Source of the DNA: Candidatus Borrarchaeum weybense
GTDB taxonomy: Archaea; Asgardarchaeota; Sifarchaeia; Borrarchaeales; Borrarchaeaceae
Reading direction: 5' to 3'
Length of the DNA stretch: 64,000 nucleotides
NCBI GenBank assembly: GCA_019057385.1
Contig: JAHQJS010000004.1
Span: 884,727 to 948,726 of the forward strand
Below, in pieces: positions 14,162-37,042 of this stretch. The notes beneath the pieces were generated by a model, which saw nothing but the letters and a program-made list of their open reading frames with translations, made no database searches and had not been told where the DNA came from. Every line of letters begins with the position of its first letter. Within the stretch, counting starts at the first letter, position 1. The position numbers were made by a program, and so were the translations under genes.

Positions 14162-15553
14162 GTGAACTACCCCACCCTGACGGATGGAGCTTCCTGCGAG
14201 TCCTCCGAACCATATCCACGAATAGGACTGGGTACTTTCGTTTTACCTTTGGCTGTGTGTCGCAGATTATCAAGAAACACTTGATAGCCCGTCCACTTGG
14301 CATTCTGTGATAGGAAACGTTTCATAAGCACCACACAACTATTTTTGTCTCTGGCAATCACGTTACCACACTCACAGTTCATAACTCGTTCCCACAACGG
14401 CATATAATGGAGTTTACCACACATATAACACTCTCTGGAGGTATTGCGTTCGTCAAATTCTATTAGTCTTTTACCTACTCGTTTCGATTTGTAGGTTAGA
14501 AACTGTACGAACCGCCCCAGCGTACCCGTGCTCTGTGTAGCGCGGTTTAACCCCGATCTCATAAAATTTGGCACCTTCGTTGACTGTGCCATGGCTTTGA
14601 CCTGCAGTTCACCCACGATAAGCGTATTCGCCTTGGTGTTGTTCACTACCTTCGTGCTGAGTTTGTGCTGGAAATCCTTTAGTTGATCATCACGTTTCCG
14701 CTCGTACTTGCGTTTGATACGGTTGAAGAACTTCCACTTGTTGCTGAATTTCTTGCACCTATCCCGCCGTGCTTGTATCTTTGCGATTTTTTGATTCCAG
14801 TATTTATCGGGACGCTGGTTGTTCACCACCAAGAATTTCCCCTGAGAATTGACAGCCGTAATGATATGGGTAATTCCCAGATCAATGGCCTGATACCGTC
14901 CGTTATCCATAAAGAGCGGTTCTTCCATCTCGTACGTGATAGTCACAAAATACCGCTTGTTCTGCTCAGAAATGGCGACTTGTTTTACCTTCTTATCATC
15001 AAAAAAGAATTTCGCAGGGATGGCAAACTCCAAAGGTAGATCATTGTAGTTATGGGAAAAGGAGACTTTTCCGTGTTCTAACTTGAACCCCGACTGGTTA
15101 TAAACCATCGTAGTGAAATACTGCTTGCCTTTGAATCGCGGGAGTCTAGCATCGGCGTGTCCATTTTTTCGCAGGGCAAAGAACGACTCATAATCGGCGG
15201 CTAACGTCCTCAAAACATACTGTAAGACCTTCGAATATACCCAGCTATATTCCGGGTAGTGCTTTTTAATTATTGGCAGGTCGTTTTGCTGTTTTCGATA
15301 AGTCACGCCCTTAATGCCGTGTCTATAGGCGTCCCTTCGCTCGGCAAGGGCAAAATTATAGATGAGTCTGCACTTCTCCGAGAGTTTCCAAAGCACTTCT
15401 TCCTGTTCTAGTGTCGGAAAGATCCTAATTTTCTGTGTCAGTCTCATGGGCTTCACGCAGACTCTGGTATCAGTATTTCTACCCCAAAAAACTATATAAA
15501 ACTAGTGGCTTTCATCCCCCCAGCAGTCGGAAGGGGACTTCCCGCTGAACTAA
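14162..15553 (-). mobile_element. IS200/IS605-family (IS1341-like, tnpB-only) element
   Basis: Left end follows TTTAA with a GAAG-TCCCC..GGGGGGA hairpin. Right end GAAGCTCCATCCGTCAGGGTGGGGTAGTTCAC overlaps the tnpB stop. No tnpA. Confidence 0.9.
14167..15456 (-). CDS. tnpB: RNA-guided endonuclease TnpB
   Basis: N-terminal 'KIRIFPT..Q', RuvC-I AIDLG, IVGEL, DERNTS, Zn finger CYMC/CECG and RuvC-III RDKN. Confidence 0.95.
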   Translation of the reverse strand: MKPMRLTQKIRIFPTLEQEEVLWKLSEKCRLIYNFALAERRDAYRHGIKGVTYRKQQNDLPIIKKHYPEYSWVYSKVLQYVLRTLAADYESFFALRKNGHADARLPRFKGKQYFTTMVYNQSGFKLEHGKVSFSHNYNDLPLEFAIPAKFFFDDKKVKQVAISEQNKRYFVTITYEMEEPLFMDNGRYQAIDLGITHIITAVNSQGKFLVVNNQRPDKYWNQKIAKIQARRDRCKKFSNKWKFFNRIKRKYERKRDDQLKDFQHKLSTKVVNNTKANTLIVGELQVKAMAQSTKVPNFMRSGLNRATQSTGTLGRFVQFLTYKSKRVGKRLIEFDERNTSRECYMCGKLHYMPLWERVMNCECGNVIARDKNSCVVLMKRFLSQNAKWTGYQVFLDNLRHTAKGKTKVPSPIRGYGSEDSQEAPSVRVG

Positions 15554-15715: not shown

Positions 15716-16249
15716 TTGATGCATCTGTTATTCAAGATAGTGGTAGTAGGAGATGGAGCCGTAGGAAAAACAACTTTGGCAACTCATTTCGTTAAGGGTA
15801 AATTCATAGAGTATTACAAAATGACTATCGGTGTAGATTTTTTTGTGAAAGACGTTCAAATCGGAGAAGATCTGATCAAACTTCAAATCTGGGACACAGC
15901 TGGTCAAGAAAGGTTTGCCTTTATTCGTCCAACGTATTATTCAGGCACCAGTGGAGGATTCATGGTATTTGATGTAAATCGGAGCGAATCCTTTAAAAGT
16001 CTTGATAAGTGGCTCAAAGAGATTCACACGAATTGTGGAAAGATTCCACTTCTTTTGTTAGGCAATAAAATTGATTTAGATATGCGACAAGTAAAAAAAT
16101 CACAAGCTGAAAAATATGCGAAGAAAAATGATCTCCTATATTACGAAACATCCGCAAAAACAGGTGAACAGGTCTTTGACGTATTTTCTGAATTAGCTAA
16201 CATTTTGTACACCAGATACAAAGTAAAAGTTAAGGATAAGTCAAGTTAA
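15716..16249 (+). CDS. Rab-like small GTPase
   Basis: G1 GDGAVGKT, TIGVDF, G3 WDTAGQERF, G4 NKID and G5 ETSAK; no C-terminal prenylation cysteine. Confidence 0.95.
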   Translation: MMHLLFKIVVVGDGAVGKTTLATHFVKGKFIEYYKMTIGVDFFVKDVQIGEDLIKLQIWDTAGQERFAFIRPTYYSGTSGGFMVFDVNRSESFKSLDKWLKEIHTNCGKIPLLLLGNKIDLDMRQVKKSQAEKYAKKNDLLYYETSAKTGEQVFDVFSELANILYTRYKVKVKDKSS

Positions 16250-16622
16250 ATTCAATTTCATAAACAGAAAACCAATATTTACTTTTTAATTATTTTCAAT
16301 TTAGAATACAAGTATATTTTGACAAGTCAATTTCACAATTATACTTATAATGGAGTATTCTGAAAAAATATTAGACAAAAATTGGCGACAGAAAAGAGAT
16401 ATTGACTGTATAATTGATCACTTCAGTCTAATATCTTAACTAAATATCTTGGATGGTGTTAAAAAAAAGAAGACGCGTCACTAATTATTATGTTTGCTTC
16501 TTGCTGCTTAAAAGATGTGATTGTTGATAGTGTGAGGTGCAAACACAATAAGTTTCTCTGAAAGTCAATTTTTGCTAATAAACAAACAACAAGAAACATA
16601 AAAAAAGAATGGAAAGATTATT

Positions 16623-17378
16623 TTGAAGAGAATACATACTGGAATTAAAGGGCTCGATAATTTAATTGAAGGAGGCATTCCAGAAGGATGGGGTGTTCTT
16701 TTGACAGGCCCTACCGGGACAGGGAAGACAACTCTCGCTATACAATATTTGTATAACGGCTATAAAGACTATAATGAACCAGGAGTATATATCAGTCTAG
16801 AAGAAGATGTTCAGGATATCCTAAAAGTGATGGCTACATTCAATTGGGATTTAAACACTCTGCAAAGGGAAAAAAAACTAGTAATGATTAATGCTATTCC
16901 AAAAAAATCTCCCGATGCGACAGAGTACGTGATTAAAGCTCCTCTATTCTCTCAAACTTTCAGTTTTGAATCAATTTGTTCGTTATTAGAAGAAAAAATC
17001 AATGAAATAAACGCAACCCGCGTTGTTATTGATGGTTTAAGCGCACTAGCGCTTCTATATCAAGATGACTTTAAAATTCGGCAAGGTCTTTTGGATATGA
17101 CAAATACAATTCGCTCCTCAGGTTGCACGACGATTTATACAACAGAGATTCCTGAGGGATCGGTTGGAATCAGCAGATTTGGAGTCGAAGAATTCATTAC
17201 ACACGGTGTAATAATCCTCTATTATGTTCGAGAAGGAGGGAAAAGAACCCGCGCCATAGAGATTCGGAAGATGCGTGGTACCAGGCATGATCAATCATTG
17301 CATCCCTATGAAATTGCAGAAAAAGGAATTGATGTATTTTCCGAAGAAATAGCATTTTTAAGAGATAATTTATTATGA
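16623..17378 (+). CDS. Single-domain KaiC/RAD55-family ATPase
   Basis: TGIKGLD, GPTGTGKT, SLEE, VIDGL and RKMRG motifs. Confidence 0.9.
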   Translation: MKRIHTGIKGLDNLIEGGIPEGWGVLLTGPTGTGKTTLAIQYLYNGYKDYNEPGVYISLEEDVQDILKVMATFNWDLNTLQREKKLVMINAIPKKSPDATEYVIKAPLFSQTFSFESICSLLEEKINEINATRVVIDGLSALALLYQDDFKIRQGLLDMTNTIRSSGCTTIYTTEIPEGSVGISRFGVEEFITHGVIILYYVREGGKRTRAIEIRKMRGTRHDQSLHPYEIAEKGIDVFSEEIAFLRDNLL

Positions 17379-17416
17379 AAAACAATATGCTATAAGAAGA
17401 TATACTCTACAATGTC

Positions 17417-18727
17417 TTGGTGGGATTAATGAAAGAAATATTCCCAGATTATTACAGTGTTTTACTATATGGTCCTCCTGGCGTTGGCAAATCGGAGTAT
17501 ATCTTTGATTTAGTAGAATATTACCTAAAACATAATAAGAAAGTGATTTATATCACCACATCAAAAAGCCCAGAGCAGCTTATCGAATACGCGAAAAAAC
17601 GTAATCTTGATATCACGAAATATGAAAATAAAACACTTGTTTTTATTGACTGTTACTCATGGTCTGTTAGTAAAGAAGAGAAAAGACTCTCAGTTGATCA
17701 TCCAGCAAATCTAAATAAAATAAGCATTAATTTAGTAAAAGCTGTAAATACATTGGGGATGCCAGTTAGAATAATTTTTGATTCATTATCTACACTTTTT
17801 CTTCATAGCCAAGCAGACGTCATTCTGAAGTTTGTTCAAACCATCACATCTCGAATTAAATCAGAATATGGCTTCATCCTTCTTTCAATGCAAAAGGGGA
17901 TGCATAATCAAGAACATGTCACCACAGTGTATTCTATCATGGATGGCGTCATAGAAATGGATTTCGAGGAAGAAACACTCGGAAAACATTTAAGAATTCA
18001 TCATCTAGACGGCTTTCCACATGAATCCATTTGGATACCGTACAAGGTAACCCCTCATGGGACTGAGATAAATCCTGAAAACCTTCAAAAGATTGTTTCT
18101 TATAACGCAAAAACAGCACAACAATCAGCAAGATTCATTAAAAAAGCTGAAAAGTTGCTTTCAGATATTTTTGCGAAAGCTATGGTTGATAATCTTATTA
18201 AATCATATCTTACTAAGTTAGGAATAACACGTGACACTATTGAACAAAATCATGCCAAAAAAATTACGGAAATGATCCACAAAGATATAATTAAGTTTAC
18301 TGGAAAAGATCCTGGCAATTTGGAGAAAGTGTTATTAGGTGATTTTATTAAACGTAAAAAGATTCTTGTTGTAGAAGATAATGAAGATTTTCGAGTTGCC
18401 ATTAAAGAAATCCTAAAACTAAAGGATTATCAAGTTGTTACAGCAGTAAATGGTGTAGAAGCTATAGACTCCGCCGAAAGAGAGCATCCAGATCTGATTT
18501 TAATGGATATTGGTCTCCCTGTGCTTGATGGATATGAAGCCACACGCCGTTTGAAATCTAAGGAAACAACTAAAGATATTCCAATAGTGGCATTAACCTC
18601 ATTTGTTCTCAAAGGGGATGATGAAAAAGCATTAGCTGCTGGATGTGATGGCTATATTCCTAAACCAATCGATATGGGCGGATTTCCACAAAAGGTAGAG
18701 CGTTTTTTCGAAACTGGCGTTCTTTGA
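17417..18727 (+). CDS. KaiC/RAD55-like ATPase fused to a C-terminal receiver (REC) domain
   Basis: GPPGVGKS and IFDSLS in the ATPase; REC motifs ILVVEDN, PDLILMDIGLP, LTS and KP. Confidence 0.85.
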   Translation: MVGLMKEIFPDYYSVLLYGPPGVGKSEYIFDLVEYYLKHNKKVIYITTSKSPEQLIEYAKKRNLDITKYENKTLVFIDCYSWSVSKEEKRLSVDHPANLNKISINLVKAVNTLGMPVRIIFDSLSTLFLHSQADVILKFVQTITSRIKSEYGFILLSMQKGMHNQEHVTTVYSIMDGVIEMDFEEETLGKHLRIHHLDGFPHESIWIPYKVTPHGTEINPENLQKIVSYNAKTAQQSARFIKKAEKLLSDIFAKAMVDNLIKSYLTKLGITRDTIEQNHAKKITEMIHKDIIKFTGKDPGNLEKVLLGDFIKRKKILVVEDNEDFRVAIKEILKLKDYQVVTAVNGVEAIDSAEREHPDLILMDIGLPVLDGYEATRRLKSKETTKDIPIVALTSFVLKGDDEKALAAGCDGYIPKPIDMGGFPQKVERFFETGVL

Positions 18728-18728
18728 G

Positions 18729-18850
18729 TCACTTTTTTCGTCCCTGAGCCTGTCATTCATCCCTGTCTTCGAAGGCGTGGGACCTCTCGGGTTTTGTCTC
18801 ATGCACAAGAACGTGTGCACCGCGTGGTGCGAAGAACATTCCGCCTTGTA
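18729..18850 (-). ncRNA. Structured repeat copy 1 (candidate ncRNA of the RAMP/Cas1 locus)
   Basis: Gapless match to copy 2 (100 of 122 identical by manual count). Covarying stems; TTATAA at 18871-18876. Confidence 0.7.
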
Positions 18851-18930
18851 GTTAAAACATTTGCTGGTTATTATAAGAGTCATGAGCATGATTTCGAGCA
18901 TTCCTATACCTCTAGTATCCGTGTTTCTTT

Positions 18931-19221
18931 TTAAGAGAGTCCACAAAATTTGTTTACGTTATCCACAAATTCTTGATCAAAGGGTTTCTCAATTAACTTC
19001 TTTTTCTTTTGATGCGTAAGTTTTTTTATTTCGCGTTCTCTTTGAATTGCCTGACGTTGGGTTCGGAATTTTTCTACATAGTACAATTTCTTGACTTTGT
19101 ATCTTTTAAGATATCTGGCGCCTTTCCCATCTAAATGGAGTTTGAGGCGCTCGAAGATATCTTTAGTATAACCTGTGTAGAACGTTTTATTTTTACAGAG
19201 AATTACGTAGACGTAAAACAC
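18931..19221 (-). CDS. GIY-YIG nuclease (UPF0213-like), about 96 aa
   Basis: FYVYVILC...FYTGYT.D...RL..H..GKGARY...E. A GTG start at 19221 follows a GGTGA RBS; the longer ORF-track start reads through repeat copy 2. Confidence 0.88.
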   Translation of the reverse strand: MFYVYVILCKNKTFYTGYTKDIFERLKLHLDGKGARYLKRYKVKKLYYVEKFRTQRQAIQREREIKKLTHQKKKKLIEKPFDQEFVDNVNKFCGLS

Positions 19222-19228
19222 TGGGGTA

Positions 19229-19350
19229 TCACCTTTTTCGTCCTTATACCTGTCATTCTTAGCCATCATCTGAGGCGTGGGACCTCTCAGGTTTAGTCTC
19301 ATGCGCAAGAACGTGTTTTCCGCGTAGTGCGAAAAACATTCCGTCTTGTA
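19229..19350 (-). ncRNA. Structured repeat copy 2
   Basis: Offset exactly 500 bp from copy 1; TTATAA at 19371-19376, the same spacing as in copy 1. Confidence 0.7.
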
Positions 19351-19426
19351 ACCTGTATAGCAGTTAGTGATTATAAAATGTGATATCATATCCCTCTGCA
19401 TTATTTTGACCTCGATTTAAATATCT

Positions 19427-20236
19427 CTAAATACTTGCTAAATCGTTTATGTAAAGATTAACCATTAAGAGTAAGTGATTTTTCAGCGAGGAAAAGCCAT
19501 AACTGAGAGCCTCATTAATTTTCTGCAATTCTTGAGACTTACGAATATAGGTATAAAGTGCAAAGAGAGAATGTTGCCGCTTCTCAATGTCACTCACTAG
19601 CGCTTGAAAATCAATTTTTTCTATTTCCGAAATGCGATAGCGTGATGTCGCTTTCCAACGAAATTTTCGAGATATACTGGAAGACAACCTGTCATAATAT
19701 TGGAGAGTTGACAATAAAGGTACCTCTGTGTCATCAATCTCGTAGTTATGATGATTTTCAACTAATTGATGGATATATTCATCACTGATAGAAACCTCAT
19801 TATAGATTTTGCTGTTATGTCTCTCGGTATGGACGAAATCATGTAGAAGCATGGCAATCAGGAGTTTTTGTTGTGTGTCTGAGAGTTTAGGGAGCATTTT
19901 TCTGATGGTGATTTTTCTCGAGACGAAGAGAGGCTTCTTGTGGAGTTTTTTCACTTCTTTCCATTGTATGCGTCCCATGCCTTCATGGGTATAGCGTCCG
20001 AGGCGATCCAGAGAGATTGCAGTTTCAAGTTTATGTTCTGGAACAATAAACTCGATATTACCATACCAAGCCCTGAAGGTCATAGGTGCCCGTCTTTCGC
20101 CTTTTGTAAGTTTACCGAAGGCTCTAGGTCGCCCATGAATTGTTATAACTCCCAGACCAGTAATTCCAAATCTTCTTCGCTTAGAAACTACAGGCGTTTT
20201 CGTTATTCCTGTTAATTTAACCCAGTTTTTTACCAT
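19427..20236 (-). CDS. Minimal RAMP (Cas5-like) domain fused to a Cas10-type permuted HD nuclease
   Basis: N-terminal strand 'KLTGITKTPV' and G-rich loop LGRYTHEGMGRI, then LLHDF..H, HH, YDRLSS and a C-terminal SLKNHL. Confidence 0.75.
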   Translation of the reverse strand: MVKNWVKLTGITKTPVVSKRRRFGITGLGVITIHGRPRAFGKLTKGERRAPMTFRAWYGNIEFIVPEHKLETAISLDRLGRYTHEGMGRIQWKEVKKLHKKPLFVSRKITIRKMLPKLSDTQQKLLIAMLLHDFVHTERHNSKIYNEVSISDEYIHQLVENHHNYEIDDTEVPLLSTLQYYDRLSSSISRKFRWKATSRYRISEIEKIDFQALVSDIEKRQHSLFALYTYIRKSQELQKINEALSYGFSSLKNHLLLMVNLYINDLASI

Positions 20237-20258
20237 TTCTAATCCTCTTTATAGTGTT

Positions 20259-20287
20259 TATCCCGTTAAAAATGATATAACGGGATA
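20259..20287. promoter_or_regulatory. Perfect 10-bp inverted repeat TATCCCGTTA-N9-TAACGGGATA
   Basis: Lies between repeat copy 3 and the RBS of the RAMP-HD gene. Could be a terminator, processing hairpin or operator. Confidence 0.55.
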
Positions 20288-20331
20288 TCTAAACGTATCG
20301 GTTTCTTTACCTTTTGTTCGTAAATTGGATA

Positions 20332-20455
20332 TCACTTTTATCGTCCCGTTGCCTGTCATCCGTCCCCATCAGTACTGGAGGCGTGGGACCTCTCAGATGG
20401 TTCAGTCTCATGCGCAAGAACGTGCCACCCGCGATACGCAAGCAGCAGACCATCA
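20332..20455 (-). ncRNA. Structured repeat copy 3 (most divergent)
   Basis: Shares CACGTTCTTGCGCATGAGAC, GAGAGGTCCCACGCCT, ATGACAGG, GGACGA and GTGA; the 5' hairpin has a different sequence but stays paired. Confidence 0.65.
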
Positions 20456-20496
20456 GGGATGAGAAAAAAGAAATAAAATGAAATAGTGCCGATTCC

Positions 20497-21300
20497 TTAA
20501 GCATTTGAAGCCCTTCGGGTATGTAATGAGACTACAGTTTCCCTCCAATCCTCGATGTTATCAAGCGCAATTGACTCAGCTTTAGTTTTTTCAGAGAACT
20601 TATAGATACCATCATTTCGCTCTAACTTTTTCTCAATGTCAACGTTTTGGAGATCAAAGTCCAAAAGTTTAACCTGTCCATAGCCTGCATTCTTACCGCC
20701 ACCAAGAGTTTCGATATAGAGCAATGACTCAATGAGAAATTTAATTTCCTCATCAGTTAATTGTGTCACATCGATAGAGAAGGTGAAGTAGCCGCTGAAA
20801 TAACTTTGTCGAAAATCCTGAATTGGAACGCCATCAAAACTTAAGGCTATCCTTGTTTCGCTGGCGATGTGAACCTTCTGCACCGCTACATTCGTCTCAT
20901 AGTCTTTATGAGAGATTGAGGTAATGGGATCTGCCGAGACAGAGATACGAGACTCTTTGTGAAAACTGCCGAAGATACGTTGTAGCATGCAAGGGGGATC
21001 ACAACTACCCAGTACATGAAATCCCACAGGCATCAATTTCGTACCATCCTTGAGTTCGGTTTTTTCACTGGTATGGCAAACTTCAATCCCACAATCATAC
21101 GCAAGTTTCATAGCTGCATGTCGTAGCATGCCACGCAGACCCTTGATGTAGTACACTTTTGTATTGAAGACCTTATCTCCGTTTACATAAGGAATTTCGC
21201 CGAGAAGTAACATCGTAGAATTCTTTTGGATAGAGGCATTTAGAGGCTTGGCAATCGGGGTATAGGCACGAACTACAATCTGTTTTTTAGTGGTTTTCAT
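20497..21300 (-). CDS. cas7: Cas7-group (Csm3-like) RAMP protein
   Basis: 'IVVRAYTPI', 'IKGLRGMLRH', Cys/His cluster with 'C..RIFGS', 'ETRIAL' thumb and G-rich loop LGGGKNAGYGQV. Confidence 0.85.
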   Translation of the reverse strand: MKTTKKQIVVRAYTPIAKPLNASIQKNSTMLLLGEIPYVNGDKVFNTKVYYIKGLRGMLRHAAMKLAYDCGIEVCHTSEKTELKDGTKLMPVGFHVLGSCDPPCMLQRIFGSFHKESRISVSADPITSISHKDYETNVAVQKVHIASETRIALSFDGVPIQDFRQSYFSGYFTFSIDVTQLTDEEIKFLIESLLYIETLGGGKNAGYGQVKLLDFDLQNVDIEKKLERNDGIYKFSEKTKAESIALDNIEDWRETVVSLHTRRASNA

Positions 21301-21345
21301 TTCTCTAACCTCGTTGATTTTTCAAATATACTTTTTGCAACCAGA

Positions 21346-21365
21346 TATATAAACCTATCGCTTTC
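21346..21365 (-). promoter_or_regulatory. Putative BRE/TATA promoter of cas7
   Basis: Minus strand AAAGCGATAGG-TTTATATA, about 45 nt upstream of the ATG. Confidence 0.5.
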
Positions 21366-21625
21366 TATACCTTTTATTAGTATAATGGAGAATTAAATTA
21401 ACTCCTTTTAAAATTTAAAGGATTTTATCGGCTTTATTTAATAACGTTGAGTTATGACGCCAAAAATGACCGTTCATTCAACTTGCTATCATTAAGAATA
21501 ATTATTCAATAAAACAAAGATATTATCCTTTTAGTAAAAACAAGCATTTTGTAAAGGTTCATAAGTTAAAAATTAATGGTCTAAATTAATTTATGTTAAA
21601 AAATTGCATAATCATCATATATATT

Positions 21626-24600
21626 TTAGGTTAAGAGTCGAGTCATAGGCACAGGGGGCCCCTTGCCTATCGATTTACAAAATCGCTCGATGCTTCGGAA
21701 CATCTCAAAGATCTCCTGAAACTGTCCCTCATCTGATAAATAGACAAAGGGGATAAATGGAGTTTCGTTTAACAAAAATCCGGCAAGATAACTGGCACAA
21801 CGATTCATAGCTTTCCTTAAAGTCATATAATTGCGATCATAATAGACGACCTCATCCATCAGTTCTTGAAACAATAACCACATCTTTTCCTCAGCACTTT
21901 CTTTTAATGTATACACTTCTTCGCCACGGGGAGTGTAAGATAACTTGAAATCATCCTTGGTGATATCCCCCTTTTTACATGCTTTTACATAAGCGTACCT
22001 GAACATGGGAAGGAACATTTCACGGAAATCAAGCACCGCACCAATAGAGATTTTTTGTCCTGCAGCTCTCCGATAATGGAGTACAAGTTCACCCGGAAAC
22101 CACGAAAAACCGACATCCCATAACACCTTTTGACATTTTTTCAATAGTTGTCTCTTTAGGGCATTAATTCCTGCACTAAAGGGAGAACGCCCTTTGGCTT
22201 CTCCCATAAATAGCGAGGACGCTACATAACGATCATAGGTACGACTGCGGCATTGCATCGCAGTATCTTCTAAGATGAGTTTCCACACCTGCCAAACCAA
22301 TCGCTCTCCATCTGCTTCATAACTGAGTAAGTTTTCTCGACTACCCGTCCAGTGGATAACTGTATGGGCGACAACGTTCATTTGACCTGCGAATAGCCTA
22401 TTTACATCCGCAGATTCTAACATACCATCCTTTTCAGCTTGCAGTGTAAGGAGTGCATTGCTTGCTCGTTTGCTCATATCTATTTGCCATGCCAATAATA
22501 GGCCATCTTCCTTTTCCCTGATGAAGTCAGCTCTTGCCTTTAATTTCTCAGTTAAATTCTCATCTTGAGAGATCTTATATCCTTCAAACGGGACACGAAT
22601 TGAGTCGTCTCGCTCCTCGCCATACACAATTCGTCCTTTAAGTTTTATACGCATAAATTCGGAAAGACCTACATCGCCTATTACTTTTATCCGCTCTATA
22701 GCATCCAACCGATGGCTACGTGAAAAGCCTTCCTTCGATATATAATGAAGCATATGTCGATTAATCGTGAGTTCATCCCCTTCCCTCACAGTCAGCCATA
22801 CATATTGTCGTTGAAGCTCACCCTCTGTCTTTGCAACCACTTTCACAGGTTTAATAGACCTTTTTAAGATGATCTCAAGTGCCTCTTGAAGAAGATCTTT
22901 CGTTCCTGGCTCGACCTTAATCCTACCATCATGAAGCAAAAAATACAGCGAATTACACTGAGGACATAGTGTGTACTGAGCATATGACATCGGTTCCTTT
23001 AATACTGCCTTTTTACAGATGCGACAGATTGGAGTTCCTTGTGTTGTTCGTTCAAAATCCCTAAAAGTCCTGCTTTTTCTTTTTCGAGAGGAATTATGAA
23101 ATCGACAGGCAGCGGTACAGAGCGTGATATCGGTAGTCATGGCACGGTGTCCAAGCAGTCTATTATATTCTGCTGATAATTCACATAAAAATCGTTGATC
23201 CACTCGTTCCTTTTCATAGTCATTTGGACAGGGCATTCTAAAGACACAGGAACCACAGGTTTTTAACATATGTTCTGGAATAGCGGTTTCTTCGCTACAT
23301 ATTCGTTTCACAGGACGTCCCACACCCTTCCCTCTCGGAAAACGTACCACTTTCCCTTGTACGTCTAAGTCGAGCACATTCCAAATAACTGTGGTAAGAC
23401 CGACTGAGTGTTCATAGTGAGCAGAGATCCGTTTATGAAGGTCTTCATAGGTAGTGATTGTTCCGTCCTTTAGTGTCGAACTAATAACGTCTTGGATAGT
23501 TTTGTGTGGTGATGGTTTTTTTTGAGGGTAAAATCGCACTTTTGATCCCCGTTCGAGTTCACTTTTTGTTGTAAGTAACTCACAGATGTGCTCTGCAGCG
23601 TCAACCAGTAATGGATTCTCCATTGTTACAAAGGCATGAACCGCCTCAGCGATCCAGGCTGCGGTTCTTCTGCTTTCTTCGGCATCTCCTAGCCACATAT
23701 TCACCTCATTTGCCGCTGTTTCGAGCTCGTAATCCTCGATTAAAGCTTTTATAAAATAGGTGTAATGTTTGGTGCTATACTTTCCATTGATGTTGTAAAC
23801 AGTCTCTGCGATTATGTCAGTAATCGCCCAATAGGCAGCTTCATTCATGGAAAATCGCTGTTCCTGAAAATAACAGCGTATATTGTTTCCAACAACCGCT
23901 GGCAGTAGGAACTGGCTTGCCCACCTTCCGATAGTCGTCGCTTTATATTTGCCACCCTTCTGTTCTACCAATTTACAGGATATGAGTTCGCGGAGATACA
24001 ATTTCACATCATTTTTTAACTGCTTCTCATATCGCTCAAGTTCTTCAATTTTATGCTCTTTTAAAAGATCGAGAAAAAACAAAATGGGTTTCCTTAGCTT
24101 GATGGAATCCTCATAGTGTTTCAGAATACGATCATAAACACAGTCAAAAAATCCAATTACAAACTGTTTATACTGCTCGATTTCTAGATCGTCGTAGTTG
24201 TCATTATCGTTCAAAAGCGAAAGAAGTTTGTTACTGTTCCGTTTGGAAACCTTAAAACTTTGATGCTGATACAGTTCGGTCTTGATTACTTCTGTATACT
24301 TCCTGATCAGTGCTTTGTGCTCGTAATACATGTAAAATCGTTGCAGATGCCTGATGAGCACACCACTAGACACAGCACCGCGTGACACTCTATACAGAAT
24401 AATATCCTTTAAATTGTGCTTTGAATGGCTCCTCAAACGTTCTTCCTCGAACTCTATTCCTTTTTCAGTGATTTTGATCCTTTTTTCTCCATAAAATGTT
24501 TCTATGCCGCTTTTAATGATCAGGTTGGCATATCCGATTTCGTAAAATTCTGGTCGTGCCGTCCTACCAACCATTGATTCCAAATCCTGTGGACTATAAA

Positions 24601-25597
24601 TCGTCGCATCGGCATCGGCGATAATCACCCGTAACACCGGAGCACTGATCCCCTCTTTATATTCAGTTGTAAAAAGCACGTTAATTTTGCCTTCTTGAAA
24701 GGCTGTCATCCGTTTTTGTCGTTCAACAGCACTTAACCCAGCATGACTGAAGGAAACTGTAATATCAATTCCCTCTTCCTCGAATTTGCAACTCAATTCA
24801 GCAGCCCTAAGCTCTGCCTTTTTCCTTGAGGCACAGAACACCAGTACACATCTTATATCAGTCTGTTGGGTACTCACTTCCATCGCGTATGTACCCTTAA
24901 CTAATTGTGCAATGACGTACATTTGTTCATCGTCATCGGAGACCTTGATAATAGGTTCAATCACAATTTCTGAATGACGTTCATCAGTCTCAATGATCTC
25001 AGCCCCAAGCCAGTCTGCTACCTCACCAATATCCTTGACCATCGCAGTCAGGTAAAGTATTTGAGGTCGGGATCGCAACCACGATTGCGTTTTGACGATA
25101 ACATCCTCCAAACGACTCCCACGCTGCATTTTGCCTACGTAATGCATCTCATCAATAACAACAAGCCCTAATTTTCTCAATAATGAGTATTCATAATTCC
25201 TCATTAACATGCCGTTAAAGGATTCAAAGGTAGTAACAATGATTTCCGCCTTCTTTAATACACGATGGGGTGGCTTCTCCTCTCCCGTCACTTTGACGAT
25301 GCGATACTTTCTGCGGTAGCGTGGCAGGCTGTCAAACCATGCCACAAGACGGTTGTAGGTCTGATCGATCAGCCGTCGATTCGGCACCAAAAACACGCAT
25401 CTTTGTTTTATCCCGAGTATAAAAGTGGCACATATAAGGGGGATGAGTGTCTTACCTGCGCCGGTTGGGGCTTTCACCAGCACATCCTTTTCTTTAATAA
25501 AGGCGGCAATAGCCTTCTCCTGAAATTCAAAGAGTTGTTGATATCCTGCCCGCTTGAGTCGTTCCCATACCGAATACCAATCCATGATGCGTGGCAT
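21626..25597 (-). CDS. Hel308/Ski2-like SF2 helicase + wHTH + Zn fingers + divergent Cas1 (aCas1-like) fusion
   Basis: Q motif FEFQ, APTGAGKT, DEMH, SHAGLS and GRTARP; winged helix; CGSC, CRIC and CPQC. The C-terminal ~390 aa has the Cas1 pattern LLSYE..., VLH..., LDFREMF..., IT.DDF, TLR.AM...A..LA.FL....F.PF. Confidence 0.8.
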   Translation of the reverse strand: MPRIMDWYSVWERLKRAGYQQLFEFQEKAIAAFIKEKDVLVKAPTGAGKTLIPLICATFILGIKQRCVFLVPNRRLIDQTYNRLVAWFDSLPRYRRKYRIVKVTGEEKPPHRVLKKAEIIVTTFESFNGMLMRNYEYSLLRKLGLVVIDEMHYVGKMQRGSRLEDVIVKTQSWLRSRPQILYLTAMVKDIGEVADWLGAEIIETDERHSEIVIEPIIKVSDDDEQMYVIAQLVKGTYAMEVSTQQTDIRCVLVFCASRKKAELRAAELSCKFEEEGIDITVSFSHAGLSAVERQKRMTAFQEGKINVLFTTEYKEGISAPVLRVIIADADATIYSPQDLESMVGRTARPEFYEIGYANLIIKSGIETFYGEKRIKITEKGIEFEEERLRSHSKHNLKDIILYRVSRGAVSSGVLIRHLQRFYMYYEHKALIRKYTEVIKTELYQHQSFKVSKRNSNKLLSLLNDNDNYDDLEIEQYKQFVIGFFDCVYDRILKHYEDSIKLRKPILFFLDLLKEHKIEELERYEKQLKNDVKLYLRELISCKLVEQKGGKYKATTIGRWASQFLLPAVVGNNIRCYFQEQRFSMNEAAYWAITDIIAETVYNINGKYSTKHYTYFIKALIEDYELETAANEVNMWLGDAEESRRTAAWIAEAVHAFVTMENPLLVDAAEHICELLTTKSELERGSKVRFYPQKKPSPHKTIQDVISSTLKDGTITTYEDLHKRISAHYEHSVGLTTVIWNVLDLDVQGKVVRFPRGKGVGRPVKRICSEETAIPEHMLKTCGSCVFRMPCPNDYEKERVDQRFLCELSAEYNRLLGHRAMTTDITLCTAACRFHNSSRKRKSRTFRDFERTTQGTPICRICKKAVLKEPMSYAQYTLCPQCNSLYFLLHDGRIKVEPGTKDLLQEALEIILKRSIKPVKVVAKTEGELQRQYVWLTVREGDELTINRHMLHYISKEGFSRSHRLDAIERIKVIGDVGLSEFMRIKLKGRIVYGEERDDSIRVPFEGYKISQDENLTEKLKARADFIREKEDGLLLAWQIDMSKRASNALLTLQAEKDGMLESADVNRLFAGQMNVVAHTVIHWTGSRENLLSYEADGERLVWQVWKLILEDTAMQCRSRTYDRYVASSLFMGEAKGRSPFSAGINALKRQLLKKCQKVLWDVGFSWFPGELVLHYRRAAGQKISIGAVLDFREMFLPMFRYAYVKACKKGDITKDDFKLSYTPRGEEVYTLKESAEEKMWLLFQELMDEVVYYDRNYMTLRKAMNRCASYLAGFLLNETPFIPFVYLSDEGQFQEIFEMFRSIERFCKSIGKGPPVPMTRLLT

Positions 25598-25719
25598 ACA
25601 CCATCAATAGTAAAACTTAGAAATTTGCTTATAAAGAAGGTAAGAGGAGCTGACAGCAACCTTTTTTCCACTTAAAGGTTTATGTAATTAGAAATCCATG
25701 TAGATGGTAAGAATTATTT

Positions 25720-27678
25720 TTGTTACTTAGGAAGGTGGGGCTTATGGGACAGAAGTTTGTGACGGTTCATGGCAAGAAATATTATGTTAAGGGTGGTAAG
25801 CTAGACTTTCGTAATTGGGCACTTAAGAATATCGCCAAAATTGAAGGGTTAGAAAATCTTACCAACCTTAGGGAGTTATACCTTTATAGTATTCATTTAG
25901 AATCGATTGAAGGTCTAGGCAATCTCACAGAACTTGAAAAATTAAGTCTTGGCGGCAATAGAATAAGAGAAATTAAGGGATTAAGAAATCTTACTAACCT
26001 CCAAGAACTCGACCTTAGTGGGAATAAGATAGAGGTGATCAAGGGACTGGAAAACCTCACTAAACTTCAGGTACTAAATCTTTATAACAATGGGATACGG
26101 GAAATCAAGGGATTAGATCAACTCACCAAACTCCAAGAACTCAACCTTGGTAGGAATTATATAAGGGAAATCGAAGGATTGGATCTCTTCTCAAACCTCC
26201 GCATACTGGATCTAAGTAGTAATTGTTTTACAGTATTCAAGGGAAGCGTGCGTCACGGTACATATTGTATTTCCGAAATCCAGGGGCTGGAAAATTTGAA
26301 AAACCTACATACGCTGAATCTTGCAAAAAATCAGATCAAGGAAATCACCGGTTTGGAAACGCTCACAAACCTCACAAACTTCGATCTGAGTCATAATCAA
26401 ATTACCGAGATCAAGGGATTGGAGAACCTTACCAAGCTCCAAGTACTCAATCTGTATGGGAATCAGATAGATGAATTCAAAGGTCTTGAGCACCTTACAA
26501 GGCTCAAAGAACTTGATCTTAATTGGAATCCAATAAGGGCTGGAGAAAGACATTTACTAAAAGCAAATGCAAAGAAAGTGGTAAAATATTGTCAAGACAA
26601 AAAGGCCGACAAGTTCCCGAGTGTAGAAGTCAAGGGAAGAACATTTCCTATACTAACCGAGGTTATGGATCTCAGAAATTTGAAGATTACCGATATTGCA
26701 GAGATTAAAGGATTGGAGGCGTTTACTAAAGTCACCGTGTTAGACCTTAGGGGCAATCAAATAACAGCTATTAGTAACCTACATCATCTTACCCAACTTC
26801 AAAAACTGAATCTTAGTGGGAACATGATCACCGAAATTAACGGTCTAGAACAACTTACCAAGCTCAAAGAATTACATATTTCGAATAACCAAATAAATGA
26901 GATCAAAGGCTTAGAGACACTCACTGGACTCCAAAAATTAAACCTCAGTGGCAATCAAATAGAAGAAATCAGTAACTTAGAGCCTCTTGCAAATCTCCAG
27001 GAACTAAATCTTGAGAGAAATCAGATTAAGACGATTAAGCAACTGGAACAACTCACCACCCTCAAAACATTAAACCTCAAGAAAAATCAAATACAGGAAA
27101 TTGAAGGACTAGATAGCCTTGTAAATCTCACCACACTCGAGCTTGAGTGGAATCAAATCAGCGAGATTAAAGGACTGGATAATCTTGTAAATCTCATCAA
27201 ACTTGATCTTGAAGAGAATCCGATCACCGAGATTAAAGGACTGGATAACCTTAAAAGTCTTAAGAACGTCTACATTACTATAGACCTTATAAGAGATGAT
27301 GAATGGGACATAGTTTGCAGTAAAGATGCACAGGTTGTTGTGAGATACTGCCAAAGAAAAACGAGAATGGAAAAGGGGGAAGATGAACTGGAAGATGAAC
27401 TGGAAGATAAACTGGATGAAGGAAGATTTGAATCGGCATTTGATACTTGGCGACACGAAAGAGATTTGGAAAGGTATTTTGATATTAATCTTCATGCAAG
27501 TGATTTTGATATTGATGAGGATTGGGAGATGTATAAATTAGATGAGGGTATTTCGATAGGACTAGTATATTTTATGGAAGACATATTCCGAGAAGAACTG
27601 CGTGGTAATAGGCTTTCACAACACGAACTAATTGAGAAAATAAATGAGTGGCTTAGACCATATTTAACTACAGAGTAG
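25720..27678 (+). CDS. SDS22-like leucine-rich repeat protein with two LRR modules and an acidic C-terminal domain
   Basis: 22-aa repeats LxxLxLxxNxIxEIKGLxx. The likely start is ATG 25744 (MGQKFV) after a GGTGG RBS. Confidence 0.92.
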   Translation: MLLRKVGLMGQKFVTVHGKKYYVKGGKLDFRNWALKNIAKIEGLENLTNLRELYLYSIHLESIEGLGNLTELEKLSLGGNRIREIKGLRNLTNLQELDLSGNKIEVIKGLENLTKLQVLNLYNNGIREIKGLDQLTKLQELNLGRNYIREIEGLDLFSNLRILDLSSNCFTVFKGSVRHGTYCISEIQGLENLKNLHTLNLAKNQIKEITGLETLTNLTNFDLSHNQITEIKGLENLTKLQVLNLYGNQIDEFKGLEHLTRLKELDLNWNPIRAGERHLLKANAKKVVKYCQDKKADKFPSVEVKGRTFPILTEVMDLRNLKITDIAEIKGLEAFTKVTVLDLRGNQITAISNLHHLTQLQKLNLSGNMITEINGLEQLTKLKELHISNNQINEIKGLETLTGLQKLNLSGNQIEEISNLEPLANLQELNLERNQIKTIKQLEQLTTLKTLNLKKNQIQEIEGLDSLVNLTTLELEWNQISEIKGLDNLVNLIKLDLEENPITEIKGLDNLKSLKNVYITIDLIRDDEWDIVCSKDAQVVVRYCQRKTRMEKGEDELEDELEDKLDEGRFESAFDTWRHERDLERYFDINLHASDFDIDEDWEMYKLDEGISIGLVYFMEDIFREELRGNRLSQHELIEKINEWLRPYLTTE

Positions 27679-27831
27679 GGAGTTTCCTTGAGGTGATTTT
27701 AGAAAACTTGAGAGAGATCGCAGATTCAATAGCTACATAATCTCAAGTAAATAATACAAAGCGTTTCGAACATTCAATCCAGTAACTGCACTATAAGGAA
27801 TCAATTTTTCCTCTTCAACAGAGGCTATGAA

Positions 27832-27897
27832 GATGCCCAAGAGATTGTAAAATACTGTCAAGAAAAGGCTCGAAAGGTAAAACAAGAAGGCGGTTGA
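27832..27897 (+). pseudogene. Orphan 3' end of an LRR gene (DAQEIVKYCQEKARKVKQEGG*)
   Basis: Matches the C-terminus of the next LRR gene (DAKKVVRYCQEKANKAKEGG*). Confidence 0.75.
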
Positions 27898-27919
27898 GGG
27901 AAACAGAGGGAGTTAAAGG

Positions 27920-30343
27920 ATGGGAAAAGAGGAGTTTGTGACGGTTAATGGCAAGAAATATTACATCATAGAGAACAACTATACAAAGCGTCTAACCTTA
28001 GATCTTAACCATGCCAAAATTTCTGATTTTAAGGATGTTAAGGGATTAGATACTTTGACGGACTTACAAGTTCTGATCCTTGATCACAATCTGCTAAGAC
28101 AAATCGAGGGGGTAGATGCTCTCGCTAATCTAGAAGATTTAGTCCTCTCACACAACAAAATTACAGAGATAACGGGATTAGAGACCCTCACCAATCTCAA
28201 AGCATTAGATCTTAGATATAATCAGATCATAGAGATCAAGGGGTTGGAGAATCTAAAGGACCTCTATTATCTTAACCTTGACGGCAATCAGATCACAGAG
28301 ATTAAGGGATTGGAGACCCTCACCAATCTTCGTGAACTACATCTAGGATATGTTGATATTTTTGAAAGGCTTTCACGGAGATTATATGAAGCATATGGTG
28401 GAGATTTAGAAGAGTTTAAAGAAGAGAAGCATCGCAATCGTATAAGAGAGATCAAGGGATTGGAGAGCCTCACTAACCTTAAACTACTAGATCTACGTGG
28501 CAATAAGATAACAGATCTCAAGGGACTGGAAAATCTTACAAATCTGGAAGAAGTATTTCTTGAAGACAATCCGTTACAAGCTGCAGATCAGATTAAATAT
28601 AGCAGGGATAGGTATTACACGTCGTCGATTGTGGAATATTGTCAAAAGAAAAAAGAGGGTAAAATCCCCTTTGTAACAATTAAAGAAATAAAATATTATG
28701 TGTATGAAGCGGAATTGGGAGAAGCCTTATACCTTAGCGAGTTAGGAATTACCGATACCGCCGAAATTGAAGGATTAGAAGCACTTACTCAACTTATAAA
28801 CCTCAATCTATCCTCAAATCAAATCACCGAAATTAAAGGACTAGAGAATCTTTCTAATCTGGAAGAACTAAACCTTGAGAACAATCCGTTACGAGAGAAT
28901 GAGAAACATCTGATAGATCAAAGTGCTCAGGTAATTGTAAAATACTGTAGGGACAAAAAGGAGGGTAAACTGAAATATGTGACAGTTGGAGAAAAGCAAT
29001 ATCAGGCTAGCAACGACATACTCGACCTTAGCGATCAAGGTATCACTGATATAACTGAAATTAAGGGTTTAGAATTCCATTTTAGTCTAAGGAAACTATT
29101 TCTTAATAATAATAACATAAAAGAGATTAAAGGCTTAGAGAAACTCTCTTCTCTACAGGAATTACATCTCAGTAATAATCAAATCAAAGAGCTCAAAGGA
29201 CTCAAGAATAATACACTTCTCGAAACATTAAATCTTAATGGGAACCAGATAGAAGATCTCAGTGAATTAGAGCATCTTAAAAACCTAAGAGAATTATTTC
29301 TTAATAACAATCACATAAAAGAGATTAAAGGTTTAGAGAACCTTCATAATATACATAAATTAGATCTTCGCAACAACCAGATACAAGAACTTAAAGGATT
29401 GGAAAACATTTCTAATTTAGTAGATCTGTTCCTCGAAGACAACCAGATACAAGAGATCAAAGAGTTGGACAACCTTATTCATCTTAAAGAGCTTCATCTA
29501 GCAAGAAATCTCATAAAAGAGATTACAGGGCTAGTAAAACTTACTAATTTAACAAACCTTAATCTTAGTTATAATCAAATTGAAGAACTTAGGGGCCTTG
29601 AAACGCTTACTCATCTCAAAGAATTATACCTTGAAGGGAATCCGATAAGAGAATGGTCTATGGCATTTATGAAAGTGTTTGATGGAGATAAAGAAACGTG
29701 GTATACGCGAGATGTGCAAGATATCGTAAATTATTGTAAAGATAAGAAAGGGGGCAAAATACCTTTTGTTACAGTCAAAGGAAAAAGGTATCATGCTTAC
29801 GATGACGATCGAACTGAATACTACTATCATCATTTCATCTTAGATGACCTCGGCAACAAATTAGAACCTCAACTTAGATTAAACCTTAGCGGGTTAGGAA
29901 TTATTGATATTAAAGAGATTAAGGGCCTAAAAGATCTTAAAAACCTCCAAGTATTAGATCTCAGTCAGAACAAGATCAAGGAAATCGCCAGGCTGGGATC
30001 CCTTGAAAATCTCGCGATCTTACATCTTGAAGAAAATATGATCACAGAAACCAAAGGGTTGAAACCTCTAAAAAATCTCCAAGAACTCTATCTCAACAAT
30101 AATCAGATACTTGAGATCAAAGATGTGGAGTCTTTCAAAAACCTCTATTTGCTAAATCTTGAGAATAATCAAATAACAGAGGTAAAAGGTTTGGAGGCGT
30201 TAATTAACCTTGAGGAACTTAGACTTGAAGGAAATCCACTAGAAGTCGATGAACGACAGTTTATTTATATTGGCAGAACTGACGCAAAAAAAGTTGTGAG
30301 GTACTGCCAAGAAAAAGCTAACAAGGCAAAGGAAGGCGGGTGA
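27920..30343 (+). CDS. SDS22-like LRR protein with four capped LRR modules
   Basis: Repeated N-cap FVTV.GKKY, 22-aa LRRs and C-cap NP....A..IV.YC..KK. Confidence 0.92.
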   Translation: MGKEEFVTVNGKKYYIIENNYTKRLTLDLNHAKISDFKDVKGLDTLTDLQVLILDHNLLRQIEGVDALANLEDLVLSHNKITEITGLETLTNLKALDLRYNQIIEIKGLENLKDLYYLNLDGNQITEIKGLETLTNLRELHLGYVDIFERLSRRLYEAYGGDLEEFKEEKHRNRIREIKGLESLTNLKLLDLRGNKITDLKGLENLTNLEEVFLEDNPLQAADQIKYSRDRYYTSSIVEYCQKKKEGKIPFVTIKEIKYYVYEAELGEALYLSELGITDTAEIEGLEALTQLINLNLSSNQITEIKGLENLSNLEELNLENNPLRENEKHLIDQSAQVIVKYCRDKKEGKLKYVTVGEKQYQASNDILDLSDQGITDITEIKGLEFHFSLRKLFLNNNNIKEIKGLEKLSSLQELHLSNNQIKELKGLKNNTLLETLNLNGNQIEDLSELEHLKNLRELFLNNNHIKEIKGLENLHNIHKLDLRNNQIQELKGLENISNLVDLFLEDNQIQEIKELDNLIHLKELHLARNLIKEITGLVKLTNLTNLNLSYNQIEELRGLETLTHLKELYLEGNPIREWSMAFMKVFDGDKETWYTRDVQDIVNYCKDKKGGKIPFVTVKGKRYHAYDDDRTEYYYHHFILDDLGNKLEPQLRLNLSGLGIIDIKEIKGLKDLKNLQVLDLSQNKIKEIARLGSLENLAILHLEENMITETKGLKPLKNLQELYLNNNQILEIKDVESFKNLYLLNLENNQITEVKGLEALINLEELRLEGNPLEVDERQFIYIGRTDAKKVVRYCQEKANKAKEGG

Positions 30344-30521: not shown

Positions 30522-30836
30522 ATATTATGTTTTCCTCTTAATTTCTCATCTGATTCCAAGTAAATAAGTTAGTATTTGATGTAAACCAAGATTAGAAATA
30601 TGGATGAAAGTTTTTTTGAATTACCAAAGATGTTAAGATAGCTTATGAAATAAATACGTATCTATTTTGTTTTTTACAAGTGTTAGATTGAATTTATTGT
30701 CTGAAAATAAAAATATACATATAATTTTCACATTTTAATGTACTGTAATGAACAATTAATACGTAGCAATTCTTATATTAACGAAATCTTATCAAAGTCA
30801 CGTTTGTTTTACAAAAAGAATAAAAAAAATCTATAG

Positions 30837-36665: not shown

Positions 36666-37042
36666 TGGATTGCCTCAAGGAGACTCCCGCCCTAAAGAGT
36701 GGAGAGGAATTAAGGTCGGGTTTTGCTCACACAACCCTTTCTGCGAGCACAGGGGTTGGTGTACCCGACCTTGGGCGGTGTTTTAATGATGGGTACTCTC
36801 AAGTCCCATCCCTCCCAACACCAAGGGAGTCGGTCCACTTCGAGGTTGTTGTAAAGGCTTACCCGTCCGTAGCACCGTTCCTACCCCTCAGAACTTTTAA
36901 CCAGCGGACGACAGAGCAAGGGGCTAGTGGAGCACCCCAGGGTGTCATAACCTCAACAACTGCTGCATCTCTCTCGTAAGGAGAGACGCCCTCTAATCAA
37001 CTAATACCCTTCGGGTATACCCTTTAGGGTGGGGTAGTTGAC
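36666..37042 (-). ncRNA. Standalone HEARO / IscB-type omegaRNA within a non-autonomous element
   Basis: Starts GTCAACTACCCCACCCTAAAGG and contains GTTGATTAGAGG, ACACCCTGGGGTGCTCCACTAGCCCCTTGCTCTGT and AACAACCTCGAAG. Terminal hairpin is followed by ATGAA. No iscB ORF. Confidence 0.85.

Follow-up and report, generated by a model that had tools for sequence, protein, structure and literature searches.

Introduction

Since 2019-2020, ARAMP and its haloarchaeal counterpart HRAMP have been listed as array-less effectors of CRISPR descent. ARAMP was reportedly described by computational means by Makarova et al. 2020 (CRISPR J 3:156). In the passages of two papers that deal with these systems (PMC8730458, PMC12669027), ARAMP is summarised as array-less, type III-derived and often accompanied by a distinct Cas1, the mechanism of both ARAMP and HRAMP is called enigmatic, and HNH and PD-(D/E)xK are given as the most common ARAMP nucleases (PMC12669027). 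RAMP proteins (Cas5, Cas6 and Cas7) are the RNA-binding subunits of class 1 effectors (PMC8730458). Because RAMP proteins normally act only with RNA, the central open question for ARAMP is therefore: which RNA? No RNA partner is named in the ARAMP passages of PMC8730458 or PMC12669027, to which this statement is confined. Here we analysed a stretch of 64,000 nt (the window) from Candidatus Borrarchaeum weybense, an Asgard archaeon with a genome of 4.18 Mb (G000), and found that its ARAMP-type cassette carries copies of a conserved, folded RNA, which we call R1, beside the genes of the putative effector. Unless a contig or locus is named, feature positions are window coordinates.

How does this locus compare with the systems already described? 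Like ARAMP, it is found in an Asgard archaeon, encodes a strongly diverged Cas7, a nuclease and a very divergent Cas1, and lacks a CRISPR array, cas2 and cas6 at the locus; the N-domain of the HD protein may correspond to the Cas5-like RAMP. It departs from the ARAMP summaries in the following respects. First, the standard cassette carries two dedicated structured-RNA genes. Second, the nuclease appears to be an HD domain fused to a small RAMP, and not HNH or PD-(D/E)xK (PMC12669027). Third, the Cas1 is fused to a Hel308-type helicase.

The cassette resembles type III effectors (Csm/Cmr, which consist of a Cas7 backbone, Cas5 and a Cas10 with an HD domain) in its Csm3-like Cas7, in a small RAMP apparently joined to an HD domain, the latter with its best structural match in a type III-A Csm chain, and in a candidate RAMP-bound RNA. 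In contrast to type III, the open reading frames (ORFs) of the cassette include no Cas10 Palm domains, Cas11 or Cas6, there is no repeat-spacer array, and the RNA is a folded molecule of about 135 nt with its own gene rather than a processed repeat-spacer unit. Canonical type III CRISPR-Cas was accordingly rejected, because no Cas10 with a Palm/cyclase domain is found among the cassette ORFs, the HD protein has only 269 amino acids (aa) and an array is missing. The OMEGA systems (IscB/TnpB) likewise encode, beside a nuclease gene, a long structured RNA that does not come from an array and that marks one edge of a multi-copy unit, and they too have solo RNA copies that lack the nuclease; unlike them, the proteins here are RAMPs and HD rather than RuvC/HNH, the RNA has no Rfam match to HEARO, and a guide segment was not identified. 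Casposons share the best structural match of the Cas1 domain (casposase 6opm) and, at one insertion, an apparent target duplication of 12-14 bp. However, no PolB is seen in the cassette, its Cas1 is fused to a helicase, and RAMP effector genes and RNAs are present. A casposon was thus rejected, given the lack of terminal inverted repeats, the lack of a polymerase among the cassette genes and a duplication at one mini-insert only.

Organization of the locus

The initial annotation gave the minus-strand order helicase-Cas1, cas7, repeat, RAMP-HD, repeat, GIY-YIG, repeat, with no CRISPR array, cas2 or cas6 within the window. This order and these absences were verified; the repeats, from upstream to downstream copies C, B and A, are three direct copies, all on the minus strand (20325-20466, 19222-19357 and 18722-18857). 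The reading of the locus as an array-less Cas1/Cas7/RAMP-HD cassette of the ARAMP type is supported. The features are as follows.

25628..25636, minus strand: TATA-type promoter box of the helicase-Cas1 gene, a CTTTATAAA-like block
21626..25597, minus strand: helicase-Cas1 fusion, 1323 aa; Pfam DEAD and Helicase_C; C-terminal Cas1 fold
21626-22600, minus strand: predicted Cas1 domain of the fusion, aa ~1000-1323, from a structure model and the Pfam scores of paralogues
20497..21300, minus strand: Cas7-like RAMP, 267 aa; Pfam RAMPs 4.1e-9
20325..20466, minus strand: RNA copy C ('type 1'), R1 131.7 bits, between cas7 and the HD gene
19427..20236, minus strand: HD protein, 269 aa; invariant HD-type residues; RAMP-like N-domain suggested by structure
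19371-19376: TATA-like box of copy B
19222..19357, minus strand: RNA copy B ('type 2'), R1 134.2 bits, ~70 nt past the HD stop; 3' edge of the cassette
18931..19221, minus strand: GIY-YIG gene (GTG start), small stand-alone type; Pfam GIY-YIG 3.3e-15
18722..18857, minus strand: RNA copy A, an extra type-2 copy, R1 122.7 bits, with a TATA-like box at 18871-18876

R1 is a conserved folded RNA

R1 is a conserved, folded, non-coding RNA that is encoded on the gene strand and lies outside Rfam. A covariance model built on the repeat copies was searched in G000 and, together with BLAST, found about 26 copies, with E values down to 3e-33, far beyond chance. The element is about 135 nt long, and not ~122 nt as first proposed. 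Structure statistics were taken from an alignment (A2) of 24 of these copies. Hairpin P1 has 10 bp, of which 8 show compensatory double changes; the long-range helix P2 (CGUUCU with GGGACG) varies solely by G-U/A-U alternation; and a further hairpin, P3, is present. In addition, a pair between a loop and the 3' tail flips from G-C (12 copies) to C-G (10 copies), which indicates a pseudoknot.

Pairing is retained in 95.2% of the cells of this alignment, compared with 36-49% after a shift of the 3' partners by 1-3 columns, and cells with double changes number 65 as against 24.6 in shuffles, a count attained by 0 of 500 shuffles. The same fold is 91.1% paired in 27 aligned copies from a genome of another family (G005), whose median pairwise identity is 72%, and 93.6% paired in 64 metagenomic copies. 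The alifold energy is -19.2 kcal/mol on the gene (minus) strand and -8.5 on the antisense strand, and the G-U/A-U alternations fit the sense strand alone. Pairing and covariation bear out the proposal of a structured RNA, and the strand energy places it on the gene strand. The three window copies had no match in Rfam 15 even at E values up to 10. In type-2 copies the conserved block is preceded, at ~25-35 nt, by a TATA-like box.

R1 accompanies the RAMP and HD genes

A tblastn search of G000 found six full cassettes (helicase-Cas1, RAMP and HD), about four partial ones without helicase-Cas1, and one divergent RAMP-HD pair. In most of the ~10 cassettes, a type-1 RNA lies between RAMP and HD and a type-2 RNA ~70 nt past the HD stop, both on the gene strand. 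Homology among the six full cassettes starts at the helicase-Cas1 promoter and ends exactly at RNA 2. The repeat is not a local triplication, and a designed threefold arrangement is not supported: it occurs twice in the standard cassette, and copy A is additional to these. The helicase-Cas1 paralogues of these cassettes are 33-49% identical, which suggests that the cassette paralogues are old.

The four other genomes of the genus all contain R1, as does one genome of a sister family (G005); a search of 55 genomes from 18 further families of the phylum did not detect it. Metagenome contigs, fetched solely by a 19-nt motif of the RNA, supplied the 64 further copies. About half of them lie 60-81 nt past the end of an HD gene, 34-111 nt past the end of a RAMP gene, or 81-100 nt before the start of an HD gene, always on the same strand as these genes; the other half are solo or close to contig ends. 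The covariance-model search and the metagenome contigs thus uphold a tight, same-strand association of repeat and cassette. Genome-wide dispersal with no link to these genes had been listed in the initial annotation as an observation that would count against this link. The repeat is indeed dispersed, because the whole cassette is multi-copy, so that its dispersal does no damage to the link.

A second RNA family beside RAMP-HD pairs

Does the RNA follow the effector genes or Cas1? The HD protein family occurs in 36 of 301 sampled genomes, among them genomes of several other Asgard families. In these families the HD gene is always situated just behind a RAMP gene, leaving no room for RNA 1, and an R1 search beside these pairs with filters off found nothing; they are accompanied either by the second RNA described next or by none recognised so far. 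In one of the families, a conserved element of ~110 nt, R2, begins ~20-35 nt past the HD stop. Its fold comprises an outer stem and, within it, a second stem that closes a conserved 21-nt loop; a 3' hairpin is probable. Of its pairs, 11 of the 17 predicted pairs are compensatory among 8 sequences. R2 is unrelated to R1. The R2 model has matches in all four genomes of its family, and nearly all of them immediately follow an HD gene or the decayed 3' remnant of such a gene. A further match lies beside the RAMP gene of a metagenome-assembled genome (MAG) of Promethearchaeota. It also has a match in G000 itself:

L029:3295-3411 (G000:C5, about 82295-82411), plus strand: R2 RNA, 59 bits, directly after the divergent RAMP-HD pair

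This divergent pair, which together with its R2 RNA spans G000:C5:80.6-82.4 kb (L029:1631-3411), sits among genes for thioredoxin, a PCC-domain protein and ribosomal L10e, with no Cas1 nearby. The occurrence of R2 with RAMP-HD pairs that lack Cas1 argues that the RNA tracks the effector pair and not Cas1, and that the conserved trio is Cas7, RAMP-HD and a folded RNA, to which the Cas1-helicase is an optional neighbour. The earlier suggestion that the RNA is linked to Cas1 in an 'RNA-dependent integration' system is therefore unsupported. Judging by sequence comparison, then, the locus is one of ~10 ARAMP cassette copies in the Borrarchaeum genome, R1 evidently belongs to the effector part of the cassette (the Cas7-like RAMP and the RAMP-HD nuclease), helicase-Cas1 is a separable neighbour, and GIY-YIG and copy A fall outside the standard unit.

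Proteins of the cassette

The RAMP scores 37.6 bits against the Pfam RAMPs model (cut-off 22.1), and it has weak NCBIfam and PDB matches to Cas7-11, a type III-D RAMP and Csm3, as well as a weak match to Csf2 models. Ten paralogues with 45-89% identity occur in G000, and relatives of the gene are found in Candidatus Borrarchaeum yapensis and in MAGs of Promethearchaeota and Hodarchaeota. The RAMP gene has its own conserved promoter inside the 325-nt gap that follows the helicase-Cas1 gene.

The HD protein has a small N-terminal RAMP-like beta domain (aa 1-108) followed by a C-terminal HD-type domain. It has no Pfam match and no profile match, and the alignment profiles of RAMP and HD gave weak matches at most against PDB sequences. 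Its paralogues in G000 are 38-78% identical, and the residues H132, D133, H140, H162, H163, D168, D182 and H254 are invariant in nine of them; from these invariant metal-binding residues, the nuclease of the cassette is probably of the HD-superfamily type. The structure model of the protein is poor (predicted local distance difference test, pLDDT, 63). When this model was aligned with VIA-align, the N-domain matched subunits of type IV-A, I-D, I-A and III effector complexes and Cas6 (Z 5-6.3), and the C-domain matched the N-terminal part of 6ifk_A, a chain of the type III-A Csm complex (Z 6.0). A Foldseek search of the model against PDB returned nothing under E 0.001, and an ESM-Atlas feature search gave no usable match. 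Of the label 'RAMP-HD' used in the initial annotation, the HD part is backed by the invariance of the motif residues; the structural matches to RAMPs and to the HD domain of Cas10 are middling (Z 5-6.3) and come from a poor model. The identity of the 269-aa protein as a RAMP-HD fusion is thus plausible but not proven.

The N-terminal part of the fusion protein (about aa 1-390) is a Hel308/DExH-type helicase (Pfam DEAD 8.7e-26, Helicase_C 2e-11), and its middle region contains conserved Cys clusters. The C-terminal 324 aa were modelled together with four paralogues (pLDDT 75). The 50 Foldseek matches listed for this model are nearly all Cas1, Cas1-containing complexes or casposase, with TM scores of 0.5-0.6, and the best of them is casposase 6opm_B (E 1.4e-6). 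The profile of the domain aligns with 2yzs_A at the H...D..E motif, and 2yzs_A recurs among the Cas1 fold matches. Pfam Cas_Cas1 exceeds its cut-off in two paralogues of the fusion, M4 and M6, and the catalytic-type residues E1094/E1098, H1174, D1190 and E1193 are invariant across five paralogues. Model and profiles together point to a distinct, highly diverged Cas1. The CTTTATAAA-like block stands at a constant distance upstream of the helicase-Cas1 ATG in all six full cassettes and forms the 5' edge of the homology between cassettes; further upstream there is no similarity.

R1 as a candidate RNA subunit

What might R1 do? We think it fairly probable that R1 is the RNA subunit of a Cas7/RAMP-HD ribonucleoprotein, encoded by stand-alone genes instead of a CRISPR array. 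Its conserved fold, its linkage to the effector genes, the counterpart R2 at the post-HD position and the RNA-binding nature of RAMP proteins speak for this. Cas7 subunits and the Cas5-like N-domain of the HD protein would bind the RNA, which would position or license the HD nuclease.

Several observations weigh against this proposal. First, a variable, unstructured guide-like segment was not identified in R1; its conserved single-stranded stretches, at A2 columns ~52-70 and ~100-120, have no complementary genomic site (at most 3-4 mismatches) beyond the RNA copies, and an exact-motif scan of viral contigs for these stretches gave no match. Second, many R1 copies are solo. In G005, an 80%-complete, fragmented MAG, there are 33 R1 copies with HD fragments only and, by one protein query, no RAMP, and this solo-rich pattern fits a self-propagating repeat as well as it fits a trans-acting RNA. 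Third, the Cas5-like label of the HD N-domain rests on matches of Z 5-6.3 to a model of pLDDT 63. Finally, no public RNA run is listed as containing the stretch.

A bolder version of the same idea, which we consider doubtful, is that ARAMP effectors are RNA-programmed without an array, by promoter-bearing R1 or R2 genes that load Cas7 and Cas5-HD, and that the adjacent Cas1-helicase inserts the effector-RNA unit at new sites, duplicating a short piece of the target, the solo RNA genes being extra or non-autonomous copies.

ARAMP itself was already known; what is new is a family of structured RNAs, R1, with its analogue R2, that is physically and evolutionarily tied to ARAMP effector genes. Candidates are now supplied with exact coordinates, a supported secondary structure and two covariance models, and the RNA is seen to follow the Cas7/HD pair and not Cas1, so that the question of the ARAMP RNA partner becomes directly testable. 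Should the RNA prove to act as guide or scaffold, stand-alone RNA genes would here programme a class 1 effector, with a bearing on the evolution and exaptation of CRISPR effectors and on possible compact RNA-directed nucleases. If the unit is also mobile and RNA-programmed, it would parallel, within class 1, the logic of the OMEGA systems (IscB/TnpB).

Is R1 the end of a mobile element?

The main alternative is that R1 is chiefly the cis-acting end of a mobile element, formed by the cassette or its RAMP-HD-RNA part, and that the fold at the 3' edge is recognised by the integration machinery, possibly the Cas1-helicase. Solo copies would then resemble miniature inverted-repeat transposable elements as non-autonomous or internally deleted derivatives. 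We judge this unlikely as the main role of R1.

In the congener G002, the GIY-YIG gene stands beside the same KaiC gene and has its own upstream region, the sequence found at window position 30530 following it directly; no RNA, cassette or leucine-rich-repeat (LRR) genes are present there. The presence of GIY-YIG by KaiC without RNA or cassette shows that it is a resident gene beside which the cassette landed, and its proposed membership of the system is not upheld. Copy B ends 1 nt before the GIY-YIG start, having displaced the former upstream region of that gene. The congener B. yapensis (G004), with flanks 94% identical, keeps the KaiC gene, GIY-YIG and an ortholog of copy B, and in it the first 51 nt of the helicase ORF are fused to the final 5 nt of the HD ORF, so that a clean internal deletion of 6.1 kb has left the promoter and a solo RNA.

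Copy A, together with ~65 nt of post-HD spacer, replaces a 38-nt intergenic stretch that contains a hairpin. It directly adjoins the KaiC/response-regulator gene, which is convergent, at its stop codon. It is missing at this site in both G004 and G002. Contigs from another study run from the end of KaiC into the hairpin form, which lacks copy A, with loose ends at 18714/18717; DNA contigs at the locus otherwise show assembly breaks inside the repeat copies.

Elsewhere in the genome, one small insert is absent from three congeners:

L031:1041-1486 (G000:C4:562540-562985): 446-bp insert in which the RAMP-upstream region is fused to an RNA

It is flanked by an apparent purine-rich duplication of 12-14 bp, which lies in a low-complexity tract, and is probably an internally deleted cassette. 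At copy A and at the solo copy C6:210632 a target duplication is not visible, both being replacements, and two other solo sites show no clear one. From these sequences, solo RNAs appear to arise both by internal deletion and by insertion. In the empty-site comparison suggested in the initial annotation, presence and absence differ at this locus, and a duplication is seen at one mini-insert only. In G005, the 33 solo copies lie in unrelated contexts, each as the 3' half of a dispersed unit of ~290 nt whose conserved 5' half has a further hairpin and TATA-like boxes (loci L050, L060, L073-L075, L078, L080, L083, L084 and L087-L089). As a separate observation, L184:842-1177 (G002:C275) is a 336-bp insert that, in a solo copy orthologous in all other respects, separates the RNA from its promoter-like region.

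A mobile end would agree with the multi-copy state of the cassette, whose homology stops exactly at RNA 2, with the difference in presence between congeners at this locus, with the 446-bp insert and its apparent duplication, with the 33 dispersed units of G005, several of them near contig ends, and with the contigs that break within copies. However, the paralogues are old (helicase-Cas1 33-49% identical, RNA ~72% median identity), which indicates no recent burst; no terminal inverted repeats exist between the cassette ends, and the 5' edge is merely a promoter. Moreover, no duplication is visible at copy A or at one further solo site, both being replacements; internal deletion within a full cassette accounts for at least two of the solo or mini copies; and the single duplication falls in a low-complexity tract. 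An internal copy between cas7 and HD is also not expected of a terminus. By analogy with the omega RNAs of TnpB and IscB, a role as a mobile end would be compatible with R1 also being a ribonucleoprotein subunit.

Other explanations

R1 might instead act in cis or in trans as a regulator of the HD nuclease gene, that is, as a leader, terminator, processing signal or RNA antitoxin following the logic of type III toxin-antitoxin systems, with HD inactive until transcription stops. The copies bracket the HD gene in most cassettes, and in other families R2 starts so close to the HD stop (~20-35 nt) that there is no room for its own promoter. In the same vein, copy B, ending 1 nt before the GIY-YIG start, would serve there as a 5' leader, and 17 of 27 G005 copies have a same-strand ORF that begins shortly downstream. 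Three helices and a pseudoknot over ~135 nt, kept in solo copies far from HD genes, nevertheless exceed what a terminator needs. There is no consistent T-run terminator behind R1 copies, type-2 copies have their own TATA-like box, and many copies face a convergent gene, so that nothing lies downstream to be regulated. We therefore find a regulatory role quite improbable, and continue to prefer R1 as the predicted subunit of a Cas7/RAMP-HD complex.

The succession repeat, HD, repeat, GIY-YIG, repeat, preceded by a Cas1 gene, recalls a giant CRISPR-like array into which Cas1 inserts gene-sized 'spacers', and tandem copies with short variable gaps occur elsewhere, for example in G004 (three copies with gaps of 227-267 nt) and in G001 (two copies 24 and 30 nt apart). 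This reading is very hard to maintain and was rejected on the congener comparison at this locus, where GIY-YIG stands at the same KaiC site in a repeat-free genome and was thus not inserted between repeats; furthermore, the 'spacer' from C to B is always the same HD gene in cassettes with both copies, and RAMP-HD-RNA units occur without Cas1. A small conserved peptide (frame ...TFLCMRLN.LRGPTP...), which is open in 19 of 24 G000 copies and consistent with two indels in multiples of three among the window copies, was rejected and deserves practically no credence, as the frame is open in just 5 of 27 G005 copies, 1-nt indels shift it, and the variable part changes by double substitutions that preserve base pairs rather than by synonymous ones.

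Ordinary CRISPR locus and neighbouring genes

A k-mer spacing scan of G000 found a single true repeat-spacer array, at C4:148.4-152.1 kb, ~750 kb from the cassette. It has ~50 repeats of 37 nt, terminating in ATTGAAAT as the minus strand reads, and belongs to an ordinary CRISPR locus:

G000:C4:148433-154842: ordinary CRISPR locus, in which cas1 (153.6-154.5 kb) and cas2 (154.6-154.8 kb) adjoin the array

No cas2 occurs in G000 outside this locus, Cas6_C was not found in the genome, and the 37-nt repeat has no similarity to the ARAMP-linked element.

Around the cassette, the window holds two large LRR genes (25720-30343, plus strand), situated between the cassette and the old GIY-YIG upstream region. 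This block is variable within the genus, with ~0.5 kb at that place in G004 and none in G002. On the other side (15716-18727, plus strand) lie a Ras/Roc-family small GTPase gene, a KaiC-type ATPase gene and a KaiC-response-regulator fusion, in that order. A TnpB/IS605 OrfB gene occupies 14167-15456 on the minus strand (Pfam OrfB_IS605, Cas12f1-like TNB and a helix-turn-helix domain); the segment 14162-15544 is missing from the collinear region of two congeners, which suggests that the TnpB gene is a recent insertion. Finally, a full-length HEARO, the IscB-type omega RNA, is encoded at 36829-37042 on the minus strand (99.8 bits, above the Rfam gathering score). It is unrelated to the ARAMP RNA and is the sole gathering-level Rfam match in the window.

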